This document shows positions 9,295-27,392 of a stretch of DNA of 64,000 nt, one piece after another. Numbering within the stretch: position 1 is the stretch's first letter; each line of letters begins with the position of its first letter. The DNA is taken from assembly GCA_964608305.1 (NCBI GenBank), contig CAZSOA010000001.1, positions 9,870 to 73,869 on the forward strand. Direction: 5' to 3'. The notes beneath the pieces are model-generated. The model saw only the letters and a program-made list of their open reading frames with translations. It did no database searches and was not told the DNA's origin. The position numbers and the translations under genes were made by a program. The stretch is from an uncultured Desulfofustis sp. (lineage in GTDB: Bacteria > Desulfobacterota > Desulfobulbia > Desulfobulbales > Desulfocapsaceae).

Positions 9295-9306
9295 CATTTT
9301 CGATCG

Positions 9307-9436: not shown

Positions 9437-9631
9437 TCGCCAATGCTTATAGTGCACCGTAGCACCGCCAAGGTTGTTCATTCGGCCTCATCAGAGACGA
9501 ATTAATAGAGGGGCCGGGAAAAATATGCTAAGCTCAGCTTCGGGCCGATAACATACCGTTTCCCCGGCCGCTTTCGCCGCTCATCCGGCAGGGACAGCCG
9601 GCACCCGCAGACAAAGAATCGCCTCAACGAC

Positions 9632-10837: not shown

Positions 10838-10849
10838 GAAACAGACAGC

Positions 10850-13800
10850 ATGAATATCAGCGCCTTCACGACCTCCCGGCCGGTATTCACCATCATGGTG
10901 ACGCTGATCGTCATTCTCATCGGTCTCGTCTCTCTGAGCCGTCTGCCCATCGACCTGCTGCCGGAGATCTCCTACCCGACCCTGAGCATTAACACTTCCT
11001 ACGGCAACGCCGCTCCGGAAGAGGTGGAGAAACTCGTTACGGAAGTCATCGAAGGCGCGGTTTCCGCCATTCAGGGCATCAAGGAGATTTCCTCCCAATC
11101 CACCGAAGGAAACAGCCGGGTCCGCGTCTCCTTTACCTGGGGCACCAATCTCGATGCGGCCACCAACGATGTCCGCGACCGACTGGATCGAATCATCAGC
11201 AGTTTACCGGAAGAGATCGATCGGCCTCAGATCCGCAAATTTGACCCTAACAGTGCTCCGATCCTGATCTACGGAGCGGCCTCGAGCCTTGATCCGATCG
11301 AGCTGCGGCGATTAATCGACGACCAGATCAGCTACCGTATCGAACAGGTTCCCGGCGTGGCGGCGCTCGATGTCTGGGGCGGCCTGGAACGGGAAATCCA
11401 GATCGAGGTTGATGCCGATCGGCTACGCGCCCTGCAACTCTCCCTGGACAAGGTGCGCACCGCGATCCGCGATGCCAATATCAGCCTGCCGGCCGGCACC
11501 ATCGAGGCCGGCAATACCGAGATCCGTCTGCGTACTCCCGGGGAGTTGACCAGTGTCGATCAACTGCTCAACCTCGTTGTCGACCGCCGCGACGGCACAC
11601 CCATCTATCTGAAGCAGGTGGCATCCGTCAACGACACCCACTCGGAGATAACCCGGATCGTCCGCATCAACGGCACCCCGGGCGTCTGGCTGGCGATCCG
11701 CAAACAGTCGGGCACCAACACGGTGGAGGTGGCAGAGCAGGCCAAGGCAATCGTCGATCAGATCAATCGCGATTTCCCGCAGATCAATATCATTCCGATC
11801 ATCGACACCTCTGAATATATTCAACGTTCACTGGCCAATGTCGGCAGAACCATCGTCTTCGGCGGGGCGCTGGCCATCATCGTGCTGCTTGCCTTTCTGC
11901 GCAACCTGCGGGCCACCCTGGTGGTGACGACGGCCATTCCGGTGGCTATCATTTCCACCTTTGCGATGATGTATTTCGGCAACCTGACCCTCAATCTGAT
12001 GACGCTTGGCGGCCTGGCGCTCGGCGTCGGGATGATGGTCGACAACTCGATCGTCGTCCTTGAGAATATCCTGCGACGCCACCAGGCATTGCAGGAAAGT
12101 CCGCGAGAAGCCGCGATCAAAGGCGCCCGGGAAGTGGCCGGAGCGATTATCGCGAGTACCTGCACGACCCTTGCCATCTTCTTTCCGATGCTCTTTGCCC
12201 AGGAGATCTCCGGGCTGCTCTTTCGCCAGCTTACCTATGTGGTGGCGTTTTCGCTGATCTGCTCGCTGATTGTCGCCCTCACCCTGGTGCCGATGCTCAC
12301 TCGCCTGTTCCTGGAGATTCAGCAACACAGGGCAACGGGCGGAGCGATTAAAGCGCTGGCCGATCGGATGGCCGTCCTGCATGAACGTCTCAATGGCGTT
12401 TATGCAATGCTGCTTGACGCCGGTTTGCGCAGCCCGGCCCGAACCATTGTCATCGTTCTGGTCATCTTTATTTTGGTTATCAGCTTGGTGCCGCTGATCA
12501 GCACCGAATTCATGCCCGCTTCCGACGAGGGCGAGGTGCGGGTCGACCTGCAGATGGCCGGTGGAACCAGGCTGGAACTGCTCGATGAGACCTTCCGTGA
12601 CGTTGAGGAGATCATCGACGGCTCGATTCCGGAAATGCGGGCCTGGGTGACCAACCTCGGTTCTTCCGGCGGCCGCGGCAACTCCACCGGCGGCAGTATC
12701 CGCATCTCTCTCGTACCGCTTCTGGAACGCGACCGATCAAGCGCCGAGGTTGCAGCGGATCTGCGGCAAAGGATCGGCACGGTTCCCGGTGCCGAGATCC
12801 GGGTTCGCGCCGGGCAGGGGATGTTTTTGCTGTCGCGGCTGATCGGCAGCGGCGGTGACGACAACCTGGAGATCGAGATTCGCGGCTATGATCTTGGCAT
12901 CCTCGACCAGTTTGCGCAGACCGTCGAGGCGCAGATCAAAGACATCCCCGGAGTCACCGATACGCGGCGTGGCCGGGAGGAAGGAGTGCCCCAGACCCTG
13001 CTGGAAATCGACCGCGACCGTGCTGCCGATCTTGGCCTGAGCGTGGCGTCCGTCGCCCGCACCCTGGAGACCGCACTTTCGGGGACCAGGGCCGGGCAAT
13101 TCCGCGACGGCAGCGGTGAGGATGTCGATATCCTCGTACGGGTCAAGGATGCAAAGCTGCTCAGCGTCGAAGAGCTGCTGACCCTGACCATCAACAACGA
13201 GGCCGGAGAGGCCGTATCGCTGCGCAATGTGCTGACCCCGCAGACCGGCATCGGACCGGTGGAAATCGATCGCAAGAACCAGCAACGACTCGTTGCCGTC
13301 AGCGCCAACGTGGCCAACCGACCGCTGGGCGAAGTGGCGGCGGAAGTGCAGGATCGACTGTCCAACATTCCGCGACCCCGTGGTTATGAAATCGTTATGG
13401 CCGGCGACATCGAAGAACAGGCCAAATCGTTCAGGGAAATGATGCTCGGCATCATGCTCGCGGTGATCCTCGTTTATATGGTCATGGCCTCGCTGTATGA
13501 ATCGTTCCTGTCACCACTGGTCGTCATGTTCTCGGTACCGTTGTCCCTGATCGGCGTCGTGCTGATCCTGCTGCTGACCGGGACCACCTTTAATGTCCAG
13601 AGTTTTATCGGCTGCATCATGTTGGTCGGCATCGTCGTCAACAACGCGATTCTGATTGTCGACCGGGCCAACACCCTTTTTCGCGACGATGGCCTGGCCC
13701 TGCTCGAAGCCGTCAGAAAAGCCGGTCGCGATCGGTTGCGCCCGGTGCTGATGACCTCCCTGACCACGGTACTGTCCCTGTCACCGCTGGCACTCGGAAT

Positions 13801-13963
13801 CGGTGAGGGCAGCGACATGCAGGCCCCGCTGGCCCGAACCGTGCTGGGCGGCCTGCTCAGTGCCTCGATGATCACCCTGATCCTCATCCCTGCCATTTTC
13901 CTGCTGTTCAACCGCCGTTTCGAACGCAAACGCGCCGGCTCCATCGCCCACCAATCGCCATGA
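10850..13963 (+). CDS. RND efflux permease (AcrB/AcrD/AcrF family)
   Basis: 1037 aa with 12-TM architecture. N-terminus RPVFTIMVTLIVILIGLVSLSRLPIDLLPE. Conserved LGGLALGVGMMVDNSIVVLENI and IGCIMLVGIVVNNAILIVD. Confidence 0.95.
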   Translation: MNISAFTTSRPVFTIMVTLIVILIGLVSLSRLPIDLLPEISYPTLSINTSYGNAAPEEVEKLVTEVIEGAVSAIQGIKEISSQSTEGNSRVRVSFTWGTNLDAATNDVRDRLDRIISSLPEEIDRPQIRKFDPNSAPILIYGAASSLDPIELRRLIDDQISYRIEQVPGVAALDVWGGLEREIQIEVDADRLRALQLSLDKVRTAIRDANISLPAGTIEAGNTEIRLRTPGELTSVDQLLNLVVDRRDGTPIYLKQVASVNDTHSEITRIVRINGTPGVWLAIRKQSGTNTVEVAEQAKAIVDQINRDFPQINIIPIIDTSEYIQRSLANVGRTIVFGGALAIIVLLAFLRNLRATLVVTTAIPVAIISTFAMMYFGNLTLNLMTLGGLALGVGMMVDNSIVVLENILRRHQALQESPREAAIKGAREVAGAIIASTCTTLAIFFPMLFAQEISGLLFRQLTYVVAFSLICSLIVALTLVPMLTRLFLEIQQHRATGGAIKALADRMAVLHERLNGVYAMLLDAGLRSPARTIVIVLVIFILVISLVPLISTEFMPASDEGEVRVDLQMAGGTRLELLDETFRDVEEIIDGSIPEMRAWVTNLGSSGGRGNSTGGSIRISLVPLLERDRSSAEVAADLRQRIGTVPGAEIRVRAGQGMFLLSRLIGSGGDDNLEIEIRGYDLGILDQFAQTVEAQIKDIPGVTDTRRGREEGVPQTLLEIDRDRAADLGLSVASVARTLETALSGTRAGQFRDGSGEDVDILVRVKDAKLLSVEELLTLTINNEAGEAVSLRNVLTPQTGIGPVEIDRKNQQRLVAVSANVANRPLGEVAAEVQDRLSNIPRPRGYEIVMAGDIEEQAKSFREMMLGIMLAVILVYMVMASLYESFLSPLVVMFSVPLSLIGVVLILLLTGTTFNVQSFIGCIMLVGIVVNNAILIVDRANTLFRDDGLALLEAVRKAGRDRLRPVLMTSLTTVLSLSPLALGIGEGSDMQAPLARTVLGGLLSASMITLILIPAIFLLFNRRFERKRAGSIAHQSP

Positions 13964-15615
13964 AACCATCCGTCTCTATCCTCTTGTTATCCGCCAGCCT
14001 GCTCCTGCTCACCGGCTGCCTGAACCGGCCACCGCACCAGTCGCTCACCCGACCGGTCGATCTGCAGGCAGCAGTGCCGACGACACCCACCCTTGCGGTT
14101 GCTGCCGACAGCGCGTCATCAGCGGAGACCGTTGCCGAACCGTCAATATTCACCAGTGAAAACGGCCAACCGCCGCCCAACCTGTCTGCTGAAGGTACGC
14201 TCGATTTGTCGGTCGAACTGGCCGTGCTGACCGCCATCAGTCGCAACCGGGCACTGGCGGTCGAGTTGTATGCGCCGATCATCGCCGGCACCTTTGTTGA
14301 AACTGAACGGGCGGTATTCGACCCTGTCCTGTTCGCCGAGGCCGGCCTTGATACGTCCCGTGATCGCGCCTATGATACGGCGACGGATCGGTTTTTCTCC
14401 ATTGACGGTGATCAGCTAACCATTCGCGGCGGGGTGGCCAAACGCTTTATCACCGGTACCGATGTCACGATGGACCTGCGCCACACCTACAATCGTCGCG
14501 ACAACACCCAAACAACCGACGATACCAGGCTCGGCCTGAACCTCACCCAAGCATTGCTGCGCGATGCCGGTATGGCTGTCAATCTGGCCGGCATTCGCCG
14601 GGCCGAAGCGGCTGAGTTAGCTTCCGCCTATAGTGTCCGGGGGTTTGCCGAACACCTGGTGGCCACGGTGGAAGAGGCGTATTGGGATTACGCGCTGGCG
14701 CTACGCCAGGTCGAAATTTTCGAAGAATCATTAACACTGGCCAGACGCCAGCGTGACGACATCCACACCCGGATCAGTGTCGGCCAGATCGCCGAAACCG
14801 AAGAAATCGTCGCCAACGCCGAATTGGCTTTACGCGAACAACAGCTTATCGACGCCCGCAGTGCCCGGGAGCGGGCCCGGCTCAGCCTGCTGCGGTTACT
14901 GAATCCGCCGGCTGCCGATGGCTGGGACAGACAGATCAGCCTCAACGAGGAAATCATCGTACCGGAGATCAGTCTCGGCAGTGCGCTGGATCATGAAGCG
15001 CTGGCCGTGCGGCTACGCCCCGACCTCAACGAGGCGCGATTGCAGGCCCGACGCGGCGAGTTGGAAACGGTGCAGACCGCCAACGGCCTGCTGCCCCGCC
15101 TCGATCTCTTCATCAATCTCGGAAAAACCGGCTATGCGCGAAGCTTCGGTGGCAGCATTGAAGACCTCGACGGGACCGGTTATGATGCCGCCATCGGTCT
15201 GGGGTTTGAACTGCCGGTGGAAAACCGTGCCGCCCGGGCGCTGGATCGTCGAGCCCGGGCCGGTTACCGGCAGGCGCTGGACAGCGTCGAGAACCTCAAG
15301 CAACTGATCTCGCTTGAGGTCCGGGTCGCGTTGCTCGAGGTCGAGCGGAACCGGCAACAGATTGAGGCCAGCGCGGCGAGGCGCATCCTGCAGGAAGAAG
15401 TGCTGCGCACCGAAACGGTGCGTTTCCGGGTCGGCACAGCCACCGCCCTCGACGTGGCGCGGGTGCAGCGGGATCTGTTGGAAAGCCGGATCAACGAAGT
15501 TGCCGCGATCGTCCATTACCGCCAGGCTTTGATCAACCTCTATCTCCTTGACGGCACCCTGCTGCTGCGCCGCGGCATTCAGGGGCCGGGCGCAGCAGAG
15601 GTGGTGATTCACTGA
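13960..15615 (+). CDS. TolC-family outer membrane efflux protein
   Basis: Lipoprotein-type signal (LLLLTGC). Two OEP repeats with long coiled helices. 4-nt overlap with the RND gene. Confidence 0.9.
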   Translation: MKPSVSILLLSASLLLLTGCLNRPPHQSLTRPVDLQAAVPTTPTLAVAADSASSAETVAEPSIFTSENGQPPPNLSAEGTLDLSVELAVLTAISRNRALAVELYAPIIAGTFVETERAVFDPVLFAEAGLDTSRDRAYDTATDRFFSIDGDQLTIRGGVAKRFITGTDVTMDLRHTYNRRDNTQTTDDTRLGLNLTQALLRDAGMAVNLAGIRRAEAAELASAYSVRGFAEHLVATVEEAYWDYALALRQVEIFEESLTLARRQRDDIHTRISVGQIAETEEIVANAELALREQQLIDARSARERARLSLLRLLNPPAADGWDRQISLNEEIIVPEISLGSALDHEALAVRLRPDLNEARLQARRGELETVQTANGLLPRLDLFINLGKTGYARSFGGSIEDLDGTGYDAAIGLGFELPVENRAARALDRRARAGYRQALDSVENLKQLISLEVRVALLEVERNRQQIEASAARRILQEEVLRTETVRFRVGTATALDVARVQRDLLESRINEVAAIVHYRQALINLYLLDGTLLLRRGIQGPGAAEVVIH

Positions 15616-15621
15616 AGGGCA

Positions 15622-16527
15622 TTACTGCTTTGAGGCAGCGGCTTGCTCCCTATTGTTGATTCGGGCCAACACCCGATAGAGCCCTTGGGTACCGAGGTTT
15701 TCGTACCCCATGGCCTGGGCGACAATGTAAAACTGATTCACCAGCGCCAGCCCGGGCAGGCTCAGGTTCATCCGCTGCGCTTCGGCCAGGGCGATCCCCA
15801 TATCCTTGACAAAATGCTTGATATAAAAGCCCGGATTGAAATCGCCCTTGGCGATGCGCCGCCCGAGATTATTGATCATCCACGATCGGGCCGCACCCTG
15901 GCCGATCACATCGATCACGGCATCCAGGTCCATGCCCATCCGCTCTGCATAGAGCAGTGATTCGACCGTGCCGATCATCGTACCGGCAACAAGGATCTGG
16001 TTGCACATCTTGGTATGCTGGCCGGCCCCGGCACCACCCATATAAGAGATATTCTCTCCCATTGCCTGAAACAGCGGCCGGACCCGCTCACACACCTCAC
16101 GGTCACCGCCGACCATGATCGCCAGCGTCCCCTCGCGGGCGCCGACATCGCCACCGGAGACCGGTGCATCGAGTGCCGCCACGCCCTGCTTGCCGGCAGC
16201 CTCATAAATGGTCCGGGCCAGTTCCGGGCTTGAGGTAGTCATATCGACAATAATCGAACCGGCTTTGGCACCGGCCAGCACCCCCTGCTCACCAAGCAGG
16301 ACGGTTTCGACATCCGGCGGAAAACCGACGATGGAAAATATGACATCGCAGTTCTGCGCCAGTTCTTTAGGCGAATCACACCAGTGGGCGCCGCGCTCGA
16401 CCAGATTATCGGCCTTGCTCCGCGTACGATTATAGACAAAGAGTTGATGGCCGGCGCTCATCAGGTGCCCGCACATGGCATTGCCCATCACCCCGGTACC
16501 GATCCAACCGAGCTTCATTTGTTCCAT
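15622..16527 (-). CDS. NAD(P)-dependent beta-hydroxyacid dehydrogenase family (3-hydroxyisobutyrate / succinic- or malonic-semialdehyde reductase type)
   Basis: MKLGWIGTGVMGNAMCGHL Rossmann motif. DAPVSGG and a C-terminal 6PGD-like helical domain. AGGAGG SD. Confidence 0.85.
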   Translation of the reverse strand: MEQMKLGWIGTGVMGNAMCGHLMSAGHQLFVYNRTRSKADNLVERGAHWCDSPKELAQNCDVIFSIVGFPPDVETVLLGEQGVLAGAKAGSIIVDMTTSSPELARTIYEAAGKQGVAALDAPVSGGDVGAREGTLAIMVGGDREVCERVRPLFQAMGENISYMGGAGAGQHTKMCNQILVAGTMIGTVESLLYAERMGMDLDAVIDVIGQGAARSWMINNLGRRIAKGDFNPGFYIKHFVKDMGIALAEAQRMNLSLPGLALVNQFYIVAQAMGYENLGTQGLYRVLARINNREQAAASKQ

Positions 16528-16567
16528 GCTCCCCTCCTGTGCTGCTTCGTTTTCCTGGCCTTATTGC

Positions 16568-18337
16568 TTATTGCAGTTTGCCGGCGGCATCCCAACCGCG
16601 AAGCCGATAGTAGTCCTGCAGTAATTGCTCCATTTCCGCGGCCGTCAGGGAACCGCCCTCGGGCAGCACCTCCTTGTGCAGGCGTGCCGGCAGTCGATCA
16701 TCTGCAGCAGTCAGTCCCTCACGCAGATTGAAGCGTCGGGTCATATCAGCTATGGTAGCCGCTTTTTGAACGAGAACCTCTTTGCTCGACGGCTGCCCGG
16801 TGGTCAGGTGGATGGTTTTCTCCAGTTCTTCCCAGCTGTAGAGATCCCGATAGAACCGGCACAGGACCAGGGTGTCGAAAATATTGAGCCGGTTCTCGTA
16901 ATCGATCAGCATTGCCGCTTTGCCTTCGATTTGATCCGGCGGAATCATGCCGGCCAATTCGGGCTTGTAAAAGGTCGTGCGCAGGTGGCAGGCGCCGCGC
17001 GGCGCGGTGCCGAAGGTCAACCCCATGCCCTTGAGCTTGCGCGGGTCATAACCGGCCGGCTCCAGTCCTTTGACATGGATGGCGAGATCCTCGAGCCCAA
17101 AAGTCCGAGCCGCGGCGACGATACCGTCGGCCAGCACAGCGCCGACTCCACGGCGGGCAGCGATGGCCTCAAGGAGTGCCGCCGTCTGGTCGGCGTTGCC
17201 GTACTCGATCTCATAGTCAATACGGCCTTGCTCTTTAGCCTCCATCATCAGCCCGCAAAGATTGCCGGCGGTGATGGTATCCATGCCGAGTCGGTCACAC
17301 AGATCGTTGAGATAGGCAACCTCCTCCATCTCTTTGATCATGCAAAGGCCGCCGAATGAGAAGATGGTTTCGTATTCGGGCCCCTCGAGCTTCAGGCCGG
17401 TATGTCGCCCTTTGCCGATCGTGGCGAGACGGCCGCAGGCCATGAAGCATTTGGCGCATGCATGCGCCTTGACGTCGTGTTCCTTGTGGTACGTCTCACC
17501 GCTGATCTGCTCCCAGTGCTCGCAGGATCCCTGGCTCCAGTATTTCGCCGGAAAGGCCCCGGTGTGATTCATCAGGCCGACCATCATCGTCGTCCCCATG
17601 GCACGATAGGCCTTGACGCCCGGATGCTCATAATTGGCCTGACTGAACGCTTTTGCATAGTCGGCCACCCCGGTGGGATCGGCGTAGACCCGCTTACGAT
17701 CACCCTGGAAGACGATCCCCTTCACCAGCTTGGCGCCGAGCACCGCACCAACGCCGGTGCGGCCGGCACAGCGCCAGGTGTCATTGGCGATGATCGCATA
17801 TTTTACAAGAGCCTCTCCGGCCGGCCCGATGACGAGGGCGCCTGGTTTCCCGTATCCGTCACGATTCGGGGCAAACCGTTTGAGCGCCTCCGCCTCGGCA
17901 GCAAAGGTTTCCATCCCCCAGAGATCGCCGGCCTCATGAAACTCGACACCATCGGGGTGAACGGAGAGGATCAATGGGCGATCGGCTGCGCCGGCCAGCA
18001 ATACCGCATCGAAGCCGGCCGCATCGATCGCCTCCGGCGCCTTGCCCCCGGAGTACGATTCGCTGTAAAAACCGGTAAGCGGCGACTTGGTGAACACCCC
18101 ATAACGGCTGCCGCCCCAGAGACGGCCGCCGCAGAACGGACCGGTAGCAATGATCAGGTGATTCTCCGGTCCGAGCGGGTCGACCCCGGGCGGATTTCGC
18201 TCCAACAGTAAATGGGTGGCCAATCCCTTGCCGCCAAGACTTTTCTCGAGCACCGTGTCCGGCAGATCCTCGATCGTCCAGGAACGATTGCCAAGATCAA
18301 TTGTCAGGATACGATTGTAATAGCCGTGCATAACCAT
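16568..18337 (-). CDS. Aldehyde:ferredoxin oxidoreductase (AOR) family, tungsten/molybdopterin enzyme (start more likely ATG 18331)
   Basis: HGYYNRILTIDLGNRSW...LGGKGLATHLL...ATGPFCGG...SPLTG...AGFDAVLLAGAA is a typical AOR N-domain. The C-terminal AFOR_C region includes CHLR and LVLCRF motifs. SD GGAGG spacing favours the third codon as the start. Confidence 0.9.
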   Translation of the reverse strand: MVMHGYYNRILTIDLGNRSWTIEDLPDTVLEKSLGGKGLATHLLLERNPPGVDPLGPENHLIIATGPFCGGRLWGGSRYGVFTKSPLTGFYSESYSGGKAPEAIDAAGFDAVLLAGAADRPLILSVHPDGVEFHEAGDLWGMETFAAEAEALKRFAPNRDGYGKPGALVIGPAGEALVKYAIIANDTWRCAGRTGVGAVLGAKLVKGIVFQGDRKRVYADPTGVADYAKAFSQANYEHPGVKAYRAMGTTMMVGLMNHTGAFPAKYWSQGSCEHWEQISGETYHKEHDVKAHACAKCFMACGRLATIGKGRHTGLKLEGPEYETIFSFGGLCMIKEMEEVAYLNDLCDRLGMDTITAGNLCGLMMEAKEQGRIDYEIEYGNADQTAALLEAIAARRGVGAVLADGIVAAARTFGLEDLAIHVKGLEPAGYDPRKLKGMGLTFGTAPRGACHLRTTFYKPELAGMIPPDQIEGKAAMLIDYENRLNIFDTLVLCRFYRDLYSWEELEKTIHLTTGQPSSKEVLVQKAATIADMTRRFNLREGLTAADDRLPARLHKEVLPEGGSLTAAEMEQLLQDYYRLRGWDAAGKLQ

Positions 18338-18439
18338 CCTCCCCCCGGCGCCGATGCACGGTTCGTGTCACGGCGATCGGTTTGTTTTCGTTTCAGCCGA
18401 TCCGACCATCCCGGAAGATGACCGGAGGGGCATCTGAGC

Positions 18440-19753
18440 CTACTTCCCGCTGATTGCGGCAAAACCATCTTCAATGATTTTCAAACCCTTGGCCAGTTGC
18501 TCATCAGTGATCACCAGCGGCATCAAGAAGCGTATGACATTACCGTACGTACCGCAGGCGAGGATGATCAGTCCCTGCTCGAAACAATAGCTGACCAAAG
18601 CCTTCGTCTGTTCCGCGGCAGGCTCCTTGGTCGTCCGGTCCTTGACCAGTTCCAGAGCGATCATCGGCCCGAGGCCGCGCACATCGCCAATGATCTCATG
18701 GCGCTGCTGCAGCGCGACAAACCGCTCGCGCAGCGTATTACCGAGTGTTTTGGCACGGCTCAGCAGATCTTCGGATTCAAAAATATCAAATACCGCCAGG
18801 GCTGCCTCACAGGCAAGCGGGTTACCGCCATAGGTCCCGCCGATTCCTGATGGATGTACGGCATCCATGATCTCCTTCTTGCCGACCACGGCGCTGAGCG
18901 GCATGCCCGCAGCAAGGCTTTTGGCGGTCGTCGTGAGGTCCGCTTCCACTCCGTAATATTCCATCGCAAACAGGTAACCGGTTCTGCCGATACCGGTCTG
19001 GATCTCATCGGCGATCAGCAGGATGCCGTGTTTCTTGCAGATCGCTTCAAGCCTTTGAAAATATTCCTGCGGTGGTGTGACAAAACCTCCTTCACCCTGG
19101 ATCGGTTCGAAAATAATGGCCGCGGTCTGCTCCGCCGCCACATGGTTGATGAAGAAATATTCGAGATGATCGGCACAGGCGACCTGGCAGGCAGGATAGG
19201 TCTTGTTGAACGGGCAACGGTAGCAATTGGCAAACGGCATCCGGTACACTTCGGGAGCAAATGGACCGAGACCGAGTTTGTACGGCTTCAGTTTCGAGGT
19301 CAAGGTCATACCCATCAGCGTTCGACCGTGGAAGCCATTGTCAAAGGTGATGATCGCCGGCCGTTTCGTGTAGTACCGGGCGATTTTCACCGCGTTTTCA
19401 ACCGCCTCGGCACCGCTGTTGACAAACATCGCCGCTTTTGCCGCTGTGCCCGGCACAGCAGCGCACAATTTCTCCGCCAATCTGACGGCAGCGGCATAGG
19501 GAGACACCATGAAGCAGGTATGGGTGAACTTCTCCGCCTGGTCCTTGATTGCCTGAACAACTTTAGGATGAGAATGGCCGACGTTCATGACGGCAATGCC
19601 GCCGGCAAAGTCGAGATACTCCCGGCCCTCGACGTCGACGATCACCGCACCCCGAGCGTGGGAGACATAGATACCGGTGGCACTGGAAACTCCTTTGGCA
19701 AGATACGTGGAACGCAGTTCCTGCAATTGTGCATTGGTGTGTGTATTGGTCAT
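18440..19753 (-). CDS. gabT: Class III aminotransferase, 4-aminobutyrate (GABA/beta-alanine) transaminase type
   Basis: 437 aa. ...DFAGGIAVMNVGHSHPKVV...FVNSGAEAVENAVKIAR...LLIADEIQTGIGRTG...TTAKSLAAGMPL is a GabT-like pattern with the PLP lysine in TTAKS. Confidence 0.85.
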   Translation of the reverse strand: MTNTHTNAQLQELRSTYLAKGVSSATGIYVSHARGAVIVDVEGREYLDFAGGIAVMNVGHSHPKVVQAIKDQAEKFTHTCFMVSPYAAAVRLAEKLCAAVPGTAAKAAMFVNSGAEAVENAVKIARYYTKRPAIITFDNGFHGRTLMGMTLTSKLKPYKLGLGPFAPEVYRMPFANCYRCPFNKTYPACQVACADHLEYFFINHVAAEQTAAIIFEPIQGEGGFVTPPQEYFQRLEAICKKHGILLIADEIQTGIGRTGYLFAMEYYGVEADLTTTAKSLAAGMPLSAVVGKKEIMDAVHPSGIGGTYGGNPLACEAALAVFDIFESEDLLSRAKTLGNTLRERFVALQQRHEIIGDVRGLGPMIALELVKDRTTKEPAAEQTKALVSYCFEQGLIILACGTYGNVIRFLMPLVITDEQLAKGLKIIEDGFAAISGK

Positions 19754-19951
19754 CGACTCACCTCATGATTGAAAAAGTGGTTAGGCTAAGAGAACGTGCG
19801 GGTCTGTCATGCATGGTACCATATCTGCTCACTGAAATCCCCGCCAAGCACCATAAAATACATCACCTTGTGAAATTTCAATATCTTTCCAGGAGATTAA
19901 ATCTTTTTTTTAGAGCTCTGCCGGCTACCACAATGTTTCCCAGGAAAATTC

Positions 19952-19980
19952 TTGACACCCCCTCTGGTGTCTGATATATC
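19952..19980 (+). promoter_or_regulatory. Sigma-70-type promoter candidate for mmsA
   Basis: TTGACA (19952-19957), a 17-nt spacer, then TATATC (19975-19980). Confidence 0.45.
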
Positions 19981-20017
19981 ATCAATTGTCACGCACAAAA
20001 TCCAACACAAATCCGAT

Positions 20018-20111
20018 ATGATCGGAGGCTTCCCGTAGAACTTCGTACTATGATCAAGCCAAACCTGTTGTCAAACTCACCACCCGCTCGAATGCCTCCG
20101 ATCATTTTTTT
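20018..20111 (+). promoter_or_regulatory. Terminator-type leader element (candidate attenuator/riboswitch expression platform) in the mmsA 5' UTR
   Basis: ATGATCGGAGGC (20018-20029) is perfectly complementary to GCCTCCGATCAT (20094-20105). The arms enclose 64 nt and are followed immediately by a T7 run (20105-20111). No upstream plus-strand gene exists for it to terminate. Confidence 0.5.
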
Positions 20112-20200
20112 ATTCTCCTGCTGTTGCAGTACGCCACCGGGAATTGTTATATCGACATCGTTTCCCCCACCCAGCAAAACCATGTCACAGGAGTTGAGTC

Positions 20201-21760
20201 ATGCCTGAAATCAAACTGAACAACCCGGTTAAGAACTTTATTCATGGAGAATGGGTAGAAGAAACCGGCGTTGAGATGGTGCCGGTCTTCAATCCGTCAA
20301 CGGGAGAGCAGATCAGTGCTGTTCCACTGTCATCGGAAAAGACCTCTCTGGAAGCGGTCGACTCGGCCTATGGCGCCTACGATTCGTGGCGCCGGCTCTC
20401 GCTCGCCAAACGCATGGCTTATCTCTTCGATCTGCGCCAGGCAATCACCGATCACGAGGAAGAACTGGCGGTCATCATCGCCATTGACCAGGCCAAACAT
20501 ATTAGTGAAGCGCGTGGTGAGGTACGCAGGATCATAGAAATTTTCGAAATGGCCTGCACTATTCCGGCACTGCTGCAGGGTGAGACGCTCAACGGGATCT
20601 CGACAAACATTACCGGCCGGATCATCAAGGAACCGCTCGGGGTCTTCGGCGGGGTTGCCCCGTTTAACTTCCCGGCGCTGGTCTTTGCCTGGTTTGTCCC
20701 CTTTGCCATCGGTGTCGGCAATACCTTTATTTTCAAACCGTCCACTCAGTCACCGTTATTTATGCAGAAAATCGGTGAGCTATTCCAGGCCGTCGGCCTG
20801 CCGAAAGGCGTGGTCAACATCGTGCACGGCAACCGTAGTGTGCCCGGCACCTGGTATGAACACCCGAAAATGAGCGGTGTCTGCCTGGTCGGCTCGACTC
20901 CCACCGCCAAGAAGATGGCCGAAGCGTGCGGACGCGGCGGCAAGCGCAGCATGCTGCTCGGTGGCGCCAAGAACATTCTGGCGGTCATGGAAGATGCCCA
21001 GCCGGACGTGTTCATCGATAACTTTATCCATTCATGCTTCGGTTCCGCCGGCCAACGCTGCCTTGCCGGTTCCATCGTCGCGGTCGTTCCGGAAATCTAC
21101 GATTCATTCCTCGAGAAGATGATCGCAGCCGCCAAAGGTATCAAAACCGGTGACGCCTGTGACCCGGATGTTTACATGGGCCCGGTGATCTCAGCTCAGG
21201 CAAAAAAGAAAATCGAACAATATATCGAGATTGGCCTCAAAGAAGGATCAAACCTGGTTCTCGACGGCCGCAATCCAGTGCTGCCTGAGAAAAACAAGAA
21301 CGGCTACTTTGTCGGCCCGACCATCTTCGAAGGTGTCACCCCCTGCCGGACCATCGCCAAGGAAGAAATTTTCGGACCGGTCGTCTCCGTCATGAAGATC
21401 CGTGATCTCGACGATGTGCTCCAGATCATCAGGGCACAACCGTTCGGCAACGGTGCCTGTATCTTCACGCAGAACCAGTATTACACCGATCAGTTCATCG
21501 CAGAAGCCAATGTCGGGATGGTCGGCGTCAATGTCGGCATCTGTGCACCACATCCTTATCTGCCCTTTGGCGGTATCAAGGATTCTCACCTGGGCACCAA
21601 CAAGGTGCAGGGCAAGGATGGCATCGACTTTTTTACCCAGAATAAAGTCGCCACCATTCGTGTTGCCCCACCGACCGGCCACTACACGGGTGGTGCTGCG
21701 ACCGGTGCGCCAGCAGAGAAAAAGGCGAGCCCGGCCGTACGCAGTTGTGTTGCTCAGTAA
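20201..21760 (+). CDS. mmsA: CoA-acylating methylmalonate/malonate-semialdehyde dehydrogenase (ALDH superfamily)
   Basis: ALDH fold. The catalytic region FGSAGQRCLA and LLGGAKN (instead of ELGGK) are the MmsA/IolA-type signatures. AGGAG SD. Confidence 0.75.
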   Translation: MPEIKLNNPVKNFIHGEWVEETGVEMVPVFNPSTGEQISAVPLSSEKTSLEAVDSAYGAYDSWRRLSLAKRMAYLFDLRQAITDHEEELAVIIAIDQAKHISEARGEVRRIIEIFEMACTIPALLQGETLNGISTNITGRIIKEPLGVFGGVAPFNFPALVFAWFVPFAIGVGNTFIFKPSTQSPLFMQKIGELFQAVGLPKGVVNIVHGNRSVPGTWYEHPKMSGVCLVGSTPTAKKMAEACGRGGKRSMLLGGAKNILAVMEDAQPDVFIDNFIHSCFGSAGQRCLAGSIVAVVPEIYDSFLEKMIAAAKGIKTGDACDPDVYMGPVISAQAKKKIEQYIEIGLKEGSNLVLDGRNPVLPEKNKNGYFVGPTIFEGVTPCRTIAKEEIFGPVVSVMKIRDLDDVLQIIRAQPFGNGACIFTQNQYYTDQFIAEANVGMVGVNVGICAPHPYLPFGGIKDSHLGTNKVQGKDGIDFFTQNKVATIRVAPPTGHYTGGAATGAPAEKKASPAVRSCVAQ

Positions 21761-22145
21761 ACCCGAGAACTGGCAGGATAAAATATCAATCACACATTTT
21801 TATCGTGGGCTTTATTGATTTTTATCGAAAAAATACGGATAATAATCATGGCGCTTTTGGGCCTGATACAATACTGATACGTTTACTCCTTCCACACCGT
21901 TTCCTGAGCGCACCCAAGGAAGCGGTTCGAAGAGCACGAACCATGGGCGACGAGACCGTCTTCGTTCGCTCCGACAATCTTCCAGCAAAACCAGTGGCAA
22001 CGACTTTGGCTGCCCATACCCATAACTATGCAGCGGTCTCCCCGCCGACGATCTCGTGTCGGCGGGAAACCTGATCACCTGATTCGGGGAATTTTTGCAG
22101 ATAATGTCAAAGGTTAACACCAATCGACATATCTCTACCCACCTT

Positions 22146-22182
22146 CTGCCGGTTGCAATCGGCAGATCCGCTTTCTTTTTTC
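22146..22182 (+). terminator. Weak terminator-like hairpin plus T-rich tract inside a 680-bp non-coding gap
   Basis: CTGCCG (22146-22151) pairs with CGGCAG (22160-22165), followed by CTTTCTTTTTTTCTCC. Confidence 0.3.
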
Positions 22183-22440
22183 TCCGACCAGTCGTCATTG
22201 CCGCGCCGGCACCCTCTCCAGCCAACCGGCACGTGCTTGGATTGGCGCGGGCCACGCCGTTTTTAGAAAAACGAATACGGGGCAGTACCTGGTTGATACC
22301 TCCCTGCCGTGCACCGATGCACGACCGACGGCGAAACCCGCGCCCACTCGGGAGATCACCGTTCGTCAACGATTGATGATGCACGGTACAATCCGCGCCC
22401 ATTGACATAGAAGGGAACCACCTACGAGAAAGGAGAAACC

Positions 22441-23748
22441 GTGAGTATTGAAATCATCACCATCCTCTACTTTTTAGTCCTGTTCTTCGCTTTGTTTCTC
22501 GGGCTCCCGGTCGCTCTCGGCTTAGGTGGAACAGCCGTCATCTTCGCAGCATTTTTCGAGCCCCGTTCGCTGCTGGCAATCCCCAGCGCCTTCCACTACA
22601 CCCCGTGGAATCATGTCCTCGTCACGATCCCCCTGTTCCTGTTTATGGGCAGCCTGATCCGCTTTTCCGGTATTGCCGAAGCGGCCTATGATGCCGTCTA
22701 TAAACTGATCGGTCATGTAGCCGGCGGACTGGCCATGGGTACCGTTGCGGTCTGTACCATTTTTGCGGCGATTACCGGCATCACCCCGCCCGCAACGATC
22801 ACCATGGGCCAGATCGCCTACCCGTCGATGATGAAGTACCAATACAACCGGGCCATCGCCATCGGTTCCATCGGCGCCGGCGGCGCCCTGGGTGCACTGA
22901 TCCCGCCAAGCGTACCGTTCATTTTCTATGGGCTGCTCGCCAAGGTGTCCATCGGCGGCCTGTTTCTCGGCGGTGTCCTTCCCGGCCTGATGCTCGCCTC
23001 GTTCTACATCATCTATATCGGCATCCGCTGTAAGATCCAGCCGCACATGGGGCCCGGCCTGCCGGCGGAAGAGTCTTTCACGCTTAAAGAGAAAATCGTT
23101 TCAGTATTCAATATCTGGCCGTTCGTGGTCCTTATCCTGATGGTGCTCGGCGCCATCTGGGGTGGTATCGCAACACCGTCTGAAGCCGCTTCTTTCGGGG
23201 CCGCAGGCGCCTGTCTGATCAACCTCATTTACCGCAAACTGACCTGGCAGGTTTTAAAGGATTCACTGGAGACCACGTTAAAGCTGTCCGGTATGGGCCT
23301 GTGGATTTTGATCGGCGCCAATATCTACCTTAACGTTTTCAACTCAATGGGATGCCAGGAACTGGTAACCAGACTCGTGCTCGGCATGCCCGGCGGTGAA
23401 AACGGCATCCTGCTGATGATGATGTTCATTATCCTGCTGCTCGGAATGTTCATGGACGACTGGGCGATCATCATGCTCTGCACGCCGCTGTATATCCCGA
23501 TAATAAACGAACTCGGTATCGATAAACTGTGGTTCGGCGTCCTGTTTATCGTCAACATCCAGATCGCTTATCTGACGCCGCCGTTTGGTTTCGTGCTGTT
23601 CTGGATCAAGAGTATTCTGCCGCCTGATGTGACCATGGGAGACGTCTATCGGTCGGTCGGGCCCTTTATCGTTTTGCAGATTATCGGCCTCTCGCTCATC
23701 TTCTTCTTCCCGCAGATCGCCCTGTGGTTACCCAGCATGATGAACTGA
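22441..23748 (+). CDS. dctM: TRAP transporter large permease (DctM family)
   Basis: 435 aa polytopic protein, GTG start with AGGAGA SD. The conserved C-terminal motif YLTPPFGFVLF is present. The same motif (FLTPPFGFSLF) occurs in the second dctM at 45585. Confidence 0.9.
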   Translation: MSIEIITILYFLVLFFALFLGLPVALGLGGTAVIFAAFFEPRSLLAIPSAFHYTPWNHVLVTIPLFLFMGSLIRFSGIAEAAYDAVYKLIGHVAGGLAMGTVAVCTIFAAITGITPPATITMGQIAYPSMMKYQYNRAIAIGSIGAGGALGALIPPSVPFIFYGLLAKVSIGGLFLGGVLPGLMLASFYIIYIGIRCKIQPHMGPGLPAEESFTLKEKIVSVFNIWPFVVLILMVLGAIWGGIATPSEAASFGAAGACLINLIYRKLTWQVLKDSLETTLKLSGMGLWILIGANIYLNVFNSMGCQELVTRLVLGMPGGENGILLMMMFIILLLGMFMDDWAIIMLCTPLYIPIINELGIDKLWFGVLFIVNIQIAYLTPPFGFVLFWIKSILPPDVTMGDVYRSVGPFIVLQIIGLSLIFFFPQIALWLPSMMN

Positions 23749-23865
23749 GTCGAGATAGCAAGGAGTTGAAAACACTGAAAGGCAACGAACTATCGGCACC
23801 GCACGACCCATCGATCGCCTGCTGATATCGTATTCTTCAGGAAATATTGCCTGGCGGAGGAACGT

Positions 23866-24372
23866 ATGAAGTTCTGGAACGTGGTACAAAAAATCATCGA
23901 TTTTATATGCGAAGCAATGGGCCGGATCGGCTGGCTGCTTGTCTTGTACTGCATGATTTTCGGCGTCAGCGATGTCTATTTTCGCTACATCCTCAATTCA
24001 CCATCGCTGTGGATCGCCACCACGCTGCAGGTGGCCATGGTTCTGATGGCCTGCATGGGCGGCGCCTATGCCCTGAACCATGATGCCTTCGTTAAGCTCG
24101 ACCTGTTCTATGCACGCTTTTCCAAAAAGAAAAAAGCCGTCTGCGACATCCTTACCGTTCCCTTTTCCTTTCTGTTCCTCGGGGTATTGGTCTGGAAAGG
24201 GTGGGAGGCGGCCATGCTGTCACTCAAATTAAAACAGGTCACCCCGACGAGTATCCCGATCCCACTCTATCCGATCAAAATTTTGATCCCGATAGCCGGA
24301 TTCATTGTCTTGCTCGTCGTCATTAAAAAGCTGGTAAACGATATAATTACGGTGTGCTCAAAGGCTGAGTAA
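23866..24372 (+). CDS. dctQ: TRAP transporter small permease (DctQ family)
   Basis: 168 aa, 4 TM, located between dctM and dctP. GGAGGA SD. Confidence 0.8.
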   Translation: MKFWNVVQKIIDFICEAMGRIGWLLVLYCMIFGVSDVYFRYILNSPSLWIATTLQVAMVLMACMGGAYALNHDAFVKLDLFYARFSKKKKAVCDILTVPFSFLFLGVLVWKGWEAAMLSLKLKQVTPTSIPIPLYPIKILIPIAGFIVLLVVIKKLVNDIITVCSKAE

Positions 24373-24514
24373 TAACTCGTCCAGCGACAGCAACAAACGG
24401 CACCGTCTTTTGTTCTGCTGCGAGACAAGTTATGGGGAGGGGGTTGATTGATCGCATTGACGCAACCTCTAATCTTTCGATGACAAACTGAAGAACAACA
24501 GGAGGGAAAACGCA

Positions 24515-25570
24515 ATGAAAAAGCAGTCTATGAAGTTCCTGGCCGTGATGTCCGCATTCGGCATCATGTCCATGGCCGGCTCCGCACTCGCAGCGGATGC
24601 GTACGGTCCCCCGGACAAGGTAACGACCTTGCTGTTCCAGCCGTGCTTCGACCAGTCCGATGCCGGCTGGCCGCTCGGCGTCGTGCCGTGGATCAAGGCG
24701 GTTGAGGAAGCCACCCAGGGCACCGTCACCTTCAAACTTGAACCTGCCGGCGCCATCACCAGTGGTGACGAGGCGTTTGGCGCAACCATCGCCGGCATGA
24801 TCGATGTCTACGCCGGTTGGGCCACCGTCTACGGCGGCGACATGCCGGAAGGCATGCTGGCCTTTGGCCTGGCCATGGGCGCCAATAACTGGCGTGATGC
24901 CTGGGCCGCCATGTGGGGTGATCCGAAGTACCGGATCGGCGATCTCGTTCAGGAAGCAGCCAAAGAGCGAAACCTGCGCTGGGTCGGTTGGACGAGTCAG
25001 GGCCCCAATGCTATGTTCACCAAATTCCCGGTCAATAAGCTGGAAGACCTGGCCGGCAAGAAAATGCGAGCCGGCGGCCCGCATGCACTCTTCCATGAAG
25101 CCATGGGCGGTGCACCGGTAGCCATGAGCGGTGGCGACATCTACACCGCCATCAAACTCGGCACCATCGACGGAACCTACTGGGATACCGGCGGAATCGA
25201 CGACATGTCATTCCATGAGGTCATCAATTACGCCATCATGCCCGGCTGGTGCCCGGCGCAGCATCAGGAAATCTACATCAATCTCGACAAGTGGAATTCC
25301 CTGACGCAGTGGCAGCGCGACCAGATCGACAGCATCTTCATGCCGACCTATTTCGAGACCAGCCGTCTGCACTGGGAAGGTGTCGAAGAGGCACTGGAGA
25401 TTCTGAAAAACGCCGGCGGCGAAGTCATTCACCTGTCCGAAGAAGAGGTGAAGCGAATGCGCGCGCGGTCGGTCGACGTGGTCTGGCCGAAAGTTGCCGA
25501 GAGGTCCGAGCGTAACGCCAAAGGCGTCGCGCTGTGGAAAGAGTTCCTGGAGGACATTGGCGAGTTATAA
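24515..25570 (+). CDS. dctP: TRAP transporter substrate-binding protein (DctP family)
   Basis: Signal peptide (AGSALAADA). The size and the ...LEDLAGKKMRAGG...YTAIKLGTIDG pattern are typical of DctP-type SBPs (substrate-binding proteins). Confidence 0.85.
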   Translation: MKKQSMKFLAVMSAFGIMSMAGSALAADAYGPPDKVTTLLFQPCFDQSDAGWPLGVVPWIKAVEEATQGTVTFKLEPAGAITSGDEAFGATIAGMIDVYAGWATVYGGDMPEGMLAFGLAMGANNWRDAWAAMWGDPKYRIGDLVQEAAKERNLRWVGWTSQGPNAMFTKFPVNKLEDLAGKKMRAGGPHALFHEAMGGAPVAMSGGDIYTAIKLGTIDGTYWDTGGIDDMSFHEVINYAIMPGWCPAQHQEIYINLDKWNSLTQWQRDQIDSIFMPTYFETSRLHWEGVEEALEILKNAGGEVIHLSEEEVKRMRARSVDVVWPKVAERSERNAKGVALWKEFLEDIGEL

Positions 25571-25620
25571 GTCGTTGTAGCAACGGCTTCTGCAGCAGAT
25601 TTTCTTCAGTTTGTACGTGC

Positions 25621-25680
25621 AAGGCGCGTCCGGTCCTGCCGATTGAACGGCAGTCGGGCGCGCCTTTTGCTGTTTTTTTT
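25621..25680 (+). terminator. Rho-independent terminator of the TRAP operon
   Basis: AAGGCGCG...CTGCCG-ATTGAA-CGGCAG...CGCGCCTT compound hairpin followed by TTGCTGTTTTTTTT. Confidence 0.7.
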
Positions 25681-25707
25681 AGGAAAAACCGATTGATTAT
25701 CAACAAA

Positions 25708-26550
25708 TCAGCTCGTTGCTGTCGGTCGACCTCCACGAGCCAGGCGTGCCTGGATCTCATCGATTACCGGCTCCAACTCGGCAACACTGTCGATGACATA
25801 ATGGGCGCCGGCAGCCGTCAGCTGGCGGCGTGCACTATCCACCAATGCACTGGCGACACGGTCGTCGAGACGGGCGAATTCATCGTGAGACAGACCGCAG
25901 AGATTGCCGGTTCGGGCAACCCCCACGGCCCAGACACCGGCGTTGCTCGCGGTATGCATATCGATGATGGTATCGCCGACATTGACCACCGCCGGTGGGG
26001 GGAAAACCGCCAATCGTTCCATCAGCCGGAAGATCATCCATGGTGCCGGTCGACCGGCGGGAACGTCAGAAGCCGATAGTGACGCATCGGGTATATACCC
26101 CTGGGCAGCTGCCGCTCGGGCAACTACTTCCGCTGCCTCCCGATAATAGCCCGTTGACGCAGCAATCTTCAGACCACGCCGGCGCAACGACGCCACCGTG
26201 TCGACCACACCGGCGATCACCGTCCCATGGTCCTGCAGGGCGTCATCGAGCAGCGGTCCGAAGAGCTGATAGAGATCATCGATATCTTCGCTGGTCGACG
26301 CTCGCCCATGCCTGCAGCGCCAGGCTTCAGCAACTCGATCAATGGCCATAACCGCAGCGATGTGATCCCGTTTTGCCATGCCCATGGGCTCCCGCGCCTC
26401 AGCCATGGTAATGGTCACACCGCGCTTGCGAAACCCTTCAACAAACGCCGCTGCCGGTGCGCAGCAACCGTAGTCAACGGTCGTTCCGGCCCAGTCGAAA
26501 ATAATCAGTTGGACGGTTTGTCCGCTCCCGGGTGCGTTCGACCGACTCAT
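25708..26550 (-). CDS. phnX: Phosphonoacetaldehyde hydrolase (phosphonatase), HAD superfamily
   Basis: LIIFDWAGTTVDYGC (HAD motif I in the PhnX context), EPMGMAKRDHI (Schiff-base Lys region), GRPAPWMIF, and VGDTIIDMHTASNAG. Confidence 0.85.
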   Translation of the reverse strand: MSRSNAPGSGQTVQLIIFDWAGTTVDYGCCAPAAAFVEGFRKRGVTITMAEAREPMGMAKRDHIAAVMAIDRVAEAWRCRHGRASTSEDIDDLYQLFGPLLDDALQDHGTVIAGVVDTVASLRRRGLKIAASTGYYREAAEVVARAAAAQGYIPDASLSASDVPAGRPAPWMIFRLMERLAVFPPPAVVNVGDTIIDMHTASNAGVWAVGVARTGNLCGLSHDEFARLDDRVASALVDSARRQLTAAGAHYVIDSVAELEPVIDEIQARLARGGRPTATS

Positions 26551-26584
26551 CGACCTAACTGGCTGTCAGGCAACGATGCCAACA

Positions 26585-27268
26585 TTAGACGTGGACACCG
26601 TTTTCTTTATAAAACGTGTAAATGAAATCCTTCTGGACCTCAAAGGACCAATGGACATCCTTAAGAATTCTGGCGGCTTCAGCACCGTTGCCCCGTTTCA
26701 TAGCTTCGATCAGGGTCTGGTGTTCAAGGCAATTGCGATACTCCCATTCCGCGATGTAATTCTTGCGCGGAAAGTCGTAGAGCCGATGTTTGATAGGCAG
26801 AATGAACTTCTTGAGCATTCCGTTAACGGAAATATCTACATAGACGTTGTGGAATTGCAGGTTGGTCTTGAAAAAGGTCGAAAAGTCGTTCGCGCTGATG
26901 TCGGCAAACATCTTTTCATTGAGCGACTCCAGTTGCTCAATGTGGTGGGGCCTTATCTTATCGATGCATTCCTCGACGATAAAGGCCTCGACCAGACCGA
27001 TCGCATCGTAGGCATGACGGACATGCTCGAGTTCAAGTTTGTTGACCAGCACCCCCCGACGCGGGATGATGGTCACGAATCCTTCAAGCTCAAGGTGGAT
27101 CAGCGCATCTCGGAGGGGGGTTTTACTGATGCCGAGTTGCTGGGCGATTTCGCCGATATTGATTGTCGACCCCGGCAACAGATCACCTTCATTCATCTGC
27201 CGGCGCAGATAGTCGTAGACCAACTCGCTCAGCGACGAATAATTCAGCGTCTCACTCATCGGCGACAT
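26585..27268 (-). CDS. GntR-family transcriptional regulator (FadR/FCD subfamily)
   Basis: Winged HTH ...GEIAQQLGISKTPLRDALIHLELEGFVTIIPRRGVLV plus a helical FCD-like C-domain. The track ORF starts at 27352, but the GGAGGAGG SD sits just before ATG 27268/27259. Confidence 0.85.
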   Translation of the reverse strand: MSPMSETLNYSSLSELVYDYLRRQMNEGDLLPGSTINIGEIAQQLGISKTPLRDALIHLELEGFVTIIPRRGVLVNKLELEHVRHAYDAIGLVEAFIVEECIDKIRPHHIEQLESLNEKMFADISANDFSTFFKTNLQFHNVYVDISVNGMLKKFILPIKHRLYDFPRKNYIAEWEYRNCLEHQTLIEAMKRGNGAEAARILKDVHWSFEVQKDFIYTFYKENGVHV

Positions 27269-27392
27269 GCCTCCTCCTGCACGCATTGACGTTATACTTT
27301 CCCGATCTGCATTTATGTCATCACAATCTAAACGATTCTGAGTACATGTCAAGCAAACAGGAAAGTATAACGCCGTCGAGGCCGTGCCACGC

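Follow-up and report, generated by a model that had tools for sequence, protein, structure and literature searches.

A two-gene unit in a stretch of 64,000 nucleotides from an uncultured Desulfofustis sp. (family Desulfocapsaceae; contig CAZSOA010000001.1, here called the window) joins a gene for a 4-aminobutyrate (GABA) transaminase, gabT, to a gene for an aldehyde:ferredoxin oxidoreductase (AOR) lying directly behind it, and we propose that the two probably constitute a conserved catabolic unit in which the AOR oxidizes the semialdehyde released by GabT with ferredoxin as electron acceptor. This proposal starts from direct observations, namely the gene identities, the intact cofactor and catalytic residues of the AOR, the conserved synteny of the pair and the variable, GABA-consistent partners that surround it. 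The nearest public locus is that of Desulfofustis glycolicus DSM 9705, with an AOR identity of 84%.

Conservation of the gabT-AOR pair

Judged from its sequence, the gabT product is a class-III aminotransferase dependent on pyridoxal phosphate, of the 4-aminobutyrate:2-oxoglutarate type. It exceeds the cut-off of the GABA transaminase equivalog TIGR00700 (567.2 against 506.65 bits), its best solved relative is Escherichia coli GabT (1SF2, 428 bits), and it is the only GabT above that cut-off in its own genome.

Among 101 Desulfocapsaceae genomes, each at least 90% complete, an AOR orthologue (at least 67% identity) was found in 35, of which 33 have in addition a GabT that passes the equivalog cut-off. 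In about 27 of the 33 the genes adjoin each other directly on one strand, most of the exceptions being contig breaks. A scan of public sequences with one genome per species gave 74 loci, in which gabT adjoins the AOR gene down to an AOR identity of about 53%, in Desulfobulbales, Desulfobacterales, Desulfatiglandales and a Syntrophobacter; in about 36 of the 39 adjacent cases, which span four orders of Thermodesulfobacteriota, gabT immediately precedes the AOR gene on the same strand. A maximum-likelihood tree confines the linkage to one clade of 54 AORs (SH-aLRT 99), with gabT adjacent in 39 members and within 10 kb in 8 more (47 of 54 in total), while two of the remaining seven stand at contig ends. 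Deeper branches of the tree (Syntrophus, Syntrophorhabdaceae, Chloroflexota) are without gabT linkage, as are the three other AOR paralogues of the genome from which the window derives. The adjacency is far beyond chance and is a trait of the clade. The preliminary description of this DNA, made from the sequence alone, had suggested that gabT and AOR genes be sought together in other genomes and had allowed that their adjacency might recur in no relative; the 101 genomes show it to be conserved within the family, and the 74 loci across orders.

A natural gene fusion points the same way, that is, to an AOR acting on the aldehyde of GabT. A single open reading frame (ORF) of 1072 aa (P0004; locus L086, positions 265-3483) unites a class-III aminotransferase with the AFOR_N and AFOR_C domains; its aminotransferase part is 37% identical to the GabT described here, and it is one distant case, seen on one 4.5-kb metagenome contig only.

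Variable partners of the pair

The surroundings of the pair vary while the pair itself persists, which is a stronger argument than the counts. Directly upstream of gabT, many loci carry the gene for an activator with PAS, sigma54 and HTH domains; Bacillus thuringiensis GabR, of the same architecture, activates gabT upon GABA or succinic semialdehyde (PMC4279683). Other loci have a divergent dCache histidine kinase together with a sigma54 response regulator. Glutamate dehydrogenase flanks the pair in seven loci: in five the large NAD type is encoded upstream of gabT, and in two the small type comes after the AOR gene. A true gabD, encoding succinic semialdehyde dehydrogenase (SSADH), lies downstream of the AOR gene in three loci (L036, L039 and L088). 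All these changing partners are consistent with GABA catabolism in which the AOR would act on the aldehyde produced by GabT.

Two local arrangements were also noted. In a Desulfocapsaceae subgroup (L015, L017, L019, L020, L050 and L074), genes for an SLT/LysM transglycosylase, a small MoaE-like protein and a BrkB/YihY-family membrane protein precede gabT-AOR, and the MoaE-like gene may relate to supply of the pterin cofactor. In L061-L065, from Desulfobacterales metagenome-assembled genomes (about 2000-11800), a LacI-type regulator, one or two MttB-family methyltransferases, gabT, AOR and an IlvD/Edd-family dehydratase stand in a row, an arrangement that may couple quaternary-amine demethylation to the gabT-AOR unit.

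Family, residues and class of the AOR

The AOR aligns over its full length with Pyrococcus furiosus AOR (1AOR, 326 bits) and scores 331 bits against a newer AOR structure, whereas P. furiosus FOR (1B25) is only the fifth-best solved match; at 256 bits, as against 326-331 for AOR-type chains, FOR is not its closest characterised relative. Its [4Fe-4S] ligands are intact, in CAKCFMAC (CxxCxxxC, residues 294-301) and as Cys493 in DTLVLC, and align with Cys288, Cys291, Cys295 and Cys494 of the P. furiosus enzyme. Both pterin motifs are present (DRLGMD at 348-353 and DTLVLC at 488-493) and align to those of P. furiosus AOR. The second-shell residues Thr243, Glu313, Tyr427 and His448 (P. furiosus AOR numbering), taken from a published list of aldehyde-oxidizing residues (PMC13328260), are matched by MGT, EGPEYE, YDPR and RGACH.

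Genes for an iron-sulfur (WorS/AorA polyferredoxin) or FAD subunit were found neither adjoining the AOR gene in the window nor recurrently beside members of the clade. Class I tungsten oxidoreductases (WORs) consist of WorL only, and the characterised members all reduce ferredoxin (PMC13328260). Because no partner subunit genes adjoin it, the AOR is, on its gene context, assigned to Class I, the single-subunit, ferredoxin type. We infer both ferredoxin as electron acceptor and tungsten as metal, the latter not being readable from the sequence. The gabT-linked clade also has conserved residues of its own, several of them basic (e.g. Tyr266-Trp267, Lys436, Arg483 and Arg494), which distant paralogues do not have.

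The genome from which the window derives carries at least four full AOR-family genes (two on contig C1 and one each on C7 and C122) and a fragment on C377. One distant paralogue (635 aa; 50623-52530, minus strand) stands alone in the window. In the region C122:3359-7166 another, of 568 aa, adjoins a same-strand gene of the aldehyde dehydrogenase (ALDH) family and is thus a second instance of both types of aldehyde-oxidizing enzyme as neighbours. Elsewhere, three proteins of 1033-1064 aa (P0001-P0003) are fusions of AOR domains with those of iron-type alcohol dehydrogenases (PF13685, PF00465 and PF25137) and may be acid-to-alcohol or alcohol-to-acid modules on one polypeptide.

Probable substrate of the AOR and its relation to SSADH

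Several points weigh against the role proposed here. The substrate of the AOR is read from gene neighbours only, and of the P. furiosus enzymes its nearer relative is the broad-range AOR, not FOR, the acid-semialdehyde-linked member. TIGR00700 cannot separate the use of GABA from that of beta-alanine or 5-aminovalerate, and enzymes of the GabT family are promiscuous, also accepting beta-alanine and 5-aminovalerate. The sampled genomes are kin, and the counts given above overstate the number of independent events. A canonical SSADH is encoded in the same genome as the window, on the small contig C261 (TIGR01780, 729.7 bits against a cut-off of 646), and an SSADH above the cut-off is present in 16 of the 33 genomes that have both gabT and the AOR gene, so that the pathway is complete without the AOR. 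Phyletic complementarity between AOR and SSADH is not clean, and its pattern is weak support for our proposal, because six GabT-positive genomes have neither an AOR orthologue nor an SSADH. The evidence comes from comparative genomics.

A further point of the same kind is provided by genome G011 (locus L087, G011:C13:8200-28100), in which GabT was not found. Its AOR (9946-11724) is 64% identical to that of the window, is nested in the gabT-linked clade and is encoded in a co-directional operon that runs dctPQM, GntR regulator, thiamine pyrophosphate (TPP) enzyme, short-chain dehydrogenase/reductase (SDR), zinc-type alcohol dehydrogenase (Zn-ADH), AOR and Xsc (sulfoacetaldehyde acetyltransferase). 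Given this context, enzymes of the clade can evidently be recruited to act on other aldehydes, which are probably sulfonated, and the operon may represent a sulfonate route, of the 2,3-dihydroxypropanesulfonate (DHPS), sulfolactate or isethionate type, in which a sulfonated aldehyde would be the substrate of the AOR.

The slot behind gabT is occupied by the AOR gene (about 27 genomes), by gabD alone, or by the AOR gene and then gabD. Indeed, gabT, AOR and gabD follow one another on one strand in four genomes (G012, G216, G230 and G235), and gabT is followed by gabD with no AOR gene between them in two (G224 and G154). Of the 33 genomes with the pair, nine have only a sub-threshold SSADH-like ALDH and eight have no SSADH-like match at E<=1e-150. 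Genomes of the same genus also have SSADH, and in the window no ALDH gene lies on the strand of gabT, so that a canonical gabDT operon is not found here. The preliminary description had cast the AOR as a replacement for SSADH. In view of the SSADH on C261 and of the gabT-AOR-gabD clusters this was too strong, the AOR being the sole candidate in only about 8 of the 33 genomes, and the two enzymes are read here, from their genes, as parallel oxidation routes for one aldehyde, the AOR route being linked to ferredoxin and probably dependent on tungsten, and the SSADH route being linked to NAD(P).

The presence of SSADH in so many of these genomes, sometimes encoded directly behind the AOR gene, is also what would be expected if GabD or another ALDH were the main oxidizer of succinic semialdehyde and the AOR were a protective broad-range scavenger or back-up. 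Such a role would agree with the broad range of the best solved relatives of the AOR and with the recruitment of one clade member to a sulfonate operon, and it has a precedent in phenylalanine catabolism by Aromatoleum aromaticum, where most of the aldehyde is handled by an NAD(P)-dependent dehydrogenase and a tungsten AOR clears the toxic excess (PMC6365974). We nevertheless consider it unlikely, since the eight genomes without an SSADH-like gene at the above threshold have the pair all the same, the conserved slot right behind gabT belongs to the AOR gene and not to gabD, and a constant tie to one aminotransferase over four orders would not be expected of a scavenger.

A probable second module in Desulfofustis

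The third gene of the gabT strand encodes a beta-hydroxyacid dehydrogenase, which the preliminary description had likened to the succinic semialdehyde reductases of Geobacter. That likeness is distant, the Geobacter enzymes 3PEF and 3PDU scoring 166 and 138 bits (ranks 8 and 14) as against 247 bits for 3W6U and 194 bits for a tartronate semialdehyde reductase (TSR). The protein falls below every equivalog cut-off (TSR, 260 against 340; 3-hydroxyisobutyrate dehydrogenase, HIBADH, 198 against 291) and is, by sequence comparison, an NAD(P)-dependent member of the HIBADH/TSR family that matches no characterised equivalog. Such a gene lies behind the AOR gene or gabT in only 8 of the 74 loci: behind the AOR gene only in the genus Desulfofustis, and directly behind gabT in L027, L031 and L033. 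The divergent mmsA product matches TIGR01722, the CoA-acylating methylmalonate semialdehyde dehydrogenase, marginally (449.6 bits, cut-off 448.5), and its best solved relatives are malonate/methylmalonate semialdehyde dehydrogenases (6 of the 10 top matches; 416 bits for B. subtilis 1T90). It has the catalytic Cys287 in GQRCL, and LLGGAKN in the position of the ELGG of hydrolytic ALDHs, so that the general-base Glu is absent. MmsA is thus predicted to be an enzyme of malonic or methylmalonic semialdehyde, and activity on succinic semialdehyde would not be expected of it.

In the dehydrogenase-bearing loci mmsA is divergent and regularly followed by the TRAP transporter genes dctMQP, and the order mmsA, dctMQP recurs in L013, L016, L027, L029 and L075. 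The best solved relative of the TRAP binding protein is a lactate binder, at a score (102 bits) too weak to name its substrate. Clostridial GABA fermentation via 4-hydroxybutyryl-CoA was considered and rejected, as PF11794, the profile of 4-hydroxybutyryl-CoA dehydratase, gave no match in the genome of the window, which is 95.5% complete; 4-hydroxybutyrate formed by reduction of succinic semialdehyde would thus have no apparent onward route there. The dehydrogenase, MmsA and the TRAP transporter most likely form a separate module for C3 semialdehydes, to judge from their families and gene order, that has been joined to gabT-AOR. The preliminary description had envisaged three alternative fates of a single semialdehyde, namely oxidation by the AOR, reduction by the dehydrogenase and CoA-acylating oxidation by MmsA. 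This is not supported, as few lineages besides Desulfofustis have the dehydrogenase and MmsA together with gabT-AOR, MmsA would not be expected to accept succinic semialdehyde, and the TRAP genes consistently trail mmsA.

Adjoining the TRAP genes, and 8 kb from the pair, is a taurine/phosphonate island (25708-32144, minus strand) that encodes phosphonoacetaldehyde hydrolase (PhnX; 330 bits against a cut-off of 220), a regulator of the GntR/FCD type, alanine dehydrogenase (ald), a pyruvate-type omega-aminotransferase and Xsc (918 bits, cut-off 676). Because the island adjoins them, the TRAP genes could serve it instead of mmsA.

The second module also invites the suggestion that the whole unit acts on another omega-amino acid, here beta-alanine (yielding malonic semialdehyde) and elsewhere 5-aminovalerate (yielding glutaric semialdehyde), with the AOR oxidizing that semialdehyde. 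MmsA, the dehydrogenase and the TRAP transporter around the pair, in the window as in L027, L031 and L033, fit malonic or methylmalonic semialdehyde; P. furiosus FOR has been proposed to act on glutaric semialdehyde; and the promiscuity of the GabT family would permit either substrate. However, most loci are without MmsA and the dehydrogenase and have GabR-like activators, glutamate dehydrogenase or SSADH-type gabD as partners, there would be little merit in oxidizing malonic semialdehyde to malonate when MmsA yields acetyl-CoA, and genes for glutarate-CoA metabolism were not seen adjoining the pair, all of which makes this explanation improbable, more so than that of a scavenger. Least probable by far, and in our view very nearly discounted, is operation of the AOR in reverse, as a carboxylic acid reductase that would use reduced ferredoxin to turn succinate into succinic semialdehyde, from which GABA or 4-hydroxybutyrate would be made. 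A reductase-type dehydrogenase does follow the AOR gene in the window, but the regulators (GabR-like activators and dCache sensors) and glutamate dehydrogenase partners are catabolic, no PF11794 match was found in the genome, as noted above, and no consumer of GABA or 4-hydroxybutyrate is evident.

Organization of the locus

The features of the locus are collected in Table 1. The coordinates of the four ORFs in the preliminary description agree exactly with ours and their families were confirmed by profile matches; its account of gabT, AOR and the dehydrogenase as co-directional with short gaps, and of mmsA as divergent, likewise holds.

Table 1. Genes and intergenic regions of the gabT-AOR locus (positions are those of the window)
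Feature	Position	Strand	Description
beta-hydroxyacid dehydrogenase	15622-16527	-	301 aa; NAD_binding_2 (PF03446) + NAD_binding_11 (PF14833); third gene of unit; 40-nt gap to AOR
AOR	16568-18337	-	589 aa; AFOR_N (PF02730) 7.5e-66 + AFOR_C (PF01314) 4e-111; second gene of unit
gabT-AOR spacer	18338-18439	-	102 nt; no terminator-like site; no Rfam match
gabT	18440-19753	-	437 aa; Aminotran_3; TIGR00700; first gene of unit
Divergent control region gabT/mmsA	19754-20200	both directions	447 nt
mmsA	20201-21760	+	519 aa; Aldedh; TIGR01722
TRAP dctM	22441-23748	+	Pfam DctM; co-directional with mmsA
TRAP dctQ	23866-24372	+	Pfam DctQ; co-directional with mmsA
TRAP dctP	24515-25570	+	Pfam DctP; co-directional with mmsA

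As the gaps between the three minus-strand genes are short and no terminator-like site was found in either of them, gabT, AOR and the dehydrogenase gene are likely to be co-transcribed. A GGAGG Shine-Dalgarno sequence precedes the start of the AOR gene; because solved homologues start at the second Met, translation probably begins at the second ATG, at 18331. In the divergent spacer, a sigma70-like site (20074-20047, minus strand; 10 of 12 consensus positions) is oriented toward gabT and a -24/-12-like site (TGGTAC-N5-CTGCT, 19814-19829, plus strand) toward mmsA, both being consensus matches only. A sigma54 promoter for gabT was considered and set aside, the sole -24/-12-like match in the spacer pointing to mmsA instead. 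The GabR-like activator of relatives does not adjoin gabT in this window, and an Rfam scan of positions 15000-33000 gave no match.

The 680-nt interval between mmsA and dctM (21761-22440) carries only a minus-strand ORF of 198 aa (21812-22408), which matched no family of Pfam or NCBIfam and has no conserved equivalent among relatives. The order M-Q-P of the TRAP genes is unusual. On the other side of the locus, an RND efflux system (adaptor, AcrB-type pump and TolC-like channel; 9632-15615, plus strand) is convergent with the gabT unit and ends 7 nt from the stop of the dehydrogenase gene.

Proposed mechanism and significance

Our working hypothesis is that GabT converts GABA, or a closely related omega-amino acid, to succinic semialdehyde by passing the amino group to 2-oxoglutarate, and that the AOR would then oxidize the semialdehyde to succinate, delivering two electrons to ferredoxin rather than to NAD(P)+. 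Glutamate dehydrogenase, encoded elsewhere in the same genome and beside the pair in relatives, could recycle glutamate to 2-oxoglutarate. The acid/aldehyde couple lies near -580 mV, so that the AOR step can produce reduced ferredoxin, which a sulfate reducer or syntroph could use. In many of these genomes the NAD(P)-dependent SSADH would form the parallel, tungsten-independent branch, and in Desulfofustis the second module would most likely feed C3 semialdehydes (from beta-alanine via GabT or from 3-hydroxy acids via the dehydrogenase) through MmsA to acetyl- or propionyl-CoA, with uptake by the TRAP transporter. That the whole clade is a dedicated succinic-semialdehyde:ferredoxin oxidoreductase, which would define a tungsten-dependent low-potential GABA route widespread in sulfate reducers and syntrophs, is a bolder claim to which we give slightly less than an even chance. 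A wider version, in which the clade is specialized for short anionic aldehydes, carboxylated and sulfonated alike, would explain the recruitment of one member beside Xsc.

A full-text literature search found no paper linking gabT, GABA or succinic semialdehyde to an AOR, and a 2026 survey of more than 4,000 members of the WOR family and their neighbourhoods mentions neither aminotransferases nor GABA nor semialdehydes (PMC13328260). The statement in the preliminary description that a ferredoxin-coupled SSADH had not been described accords with this as far as GabT and succinic semialdehyde are concerned, but has to be qualified, since P. furiosus FOR, with glutarate bound in its crystal, has already been proposed to oxidize glutaric semialdehyde (PMC12096430). 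A physiological role has been defined for only 5 of 92 WOR clades (PMC13328260); conserved gene context now gives a whole clade a clear, testable substrate prediction, and if this is true one more of the 92 acquires a role. In strict anaerobes, oxidation of the aldehyde from GABA-type amino acids would then generate reduced ferredoxin, which would shift the energy balance of sulfate reducers and syntrophs that oxidize amino acids, and tungsten supply would become a factor in the turnover of nitrogen compounds in sediments. The pair is carried by the cultured D. glycolicus DSM 9705 (two copies), Desulfoprunum benzoelyticum DSM 28570 and Desulfogranum marinum DSM 2058, and the prediction is thus directly testable.

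Comparison with known systems

The best-matching characterised homologue, P. furiosus AOR of Class I, has all cofactor and catalytic residues in common with the AOR described here and is likewise a single subunit, yet it serves peptide fermentation, on aldehydes from 2-oxoacid decarboxylation, and has no genetic tie to one aminotransferase, whereas the clade studied here has conserved residues of its own. P. furiosus FOR (1B25/1B4N) is the nearest functional precedent, as an AOR-family enzyme proposed for a dicarboxylate semialdehyde, but it is not an orthologue, is without a known link to GabT, and its physiological substrate is only proposed. The A. aromaticum enzyme AorABC (Class III) likewise places a tungsten AOR beside an NAD(P)-dependent aldehyde dehydrogenase acting on an amino-acid-derived aldehyde (PMC6365974); it differs in having iron-sulfur and FAD subunits, for which no genes flank the AOR of the window, and in reducing NAD+. 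The mmsAB, 3-hydroxypropionate and beta-alanine modules resemble the second module in combining an MmsA-family enzyme and a HIBADH-family dehydrogenase in one locus, although in the window these genes flank gabT-AOR from opposite strands and the dehydrogenase matches no characterised equivalog. A further parallel is the canonical gabDT system, as in E. coli (GabT with the NADP-dependent GabD) and the gab cluster of B. thuringiensis, where the same GabT equivalog comes first and an aldehyde oxidizer is encoded directly behind gabT; relatives of the Desulfofustis locus even share the PAS-sigma54-HTH type of activator with the latter (PMC4279683). What differs is that a pterin- and [4Fe-4S]-containing AOR, presumably ferredoxin-linked, is encoded in the position behind gabT instead of an NAD(P)-dependent ALDH, with several relatives having both, and the gabT-AOR pair would represent a new version of a known pathway, one that comparative genomics supports well.

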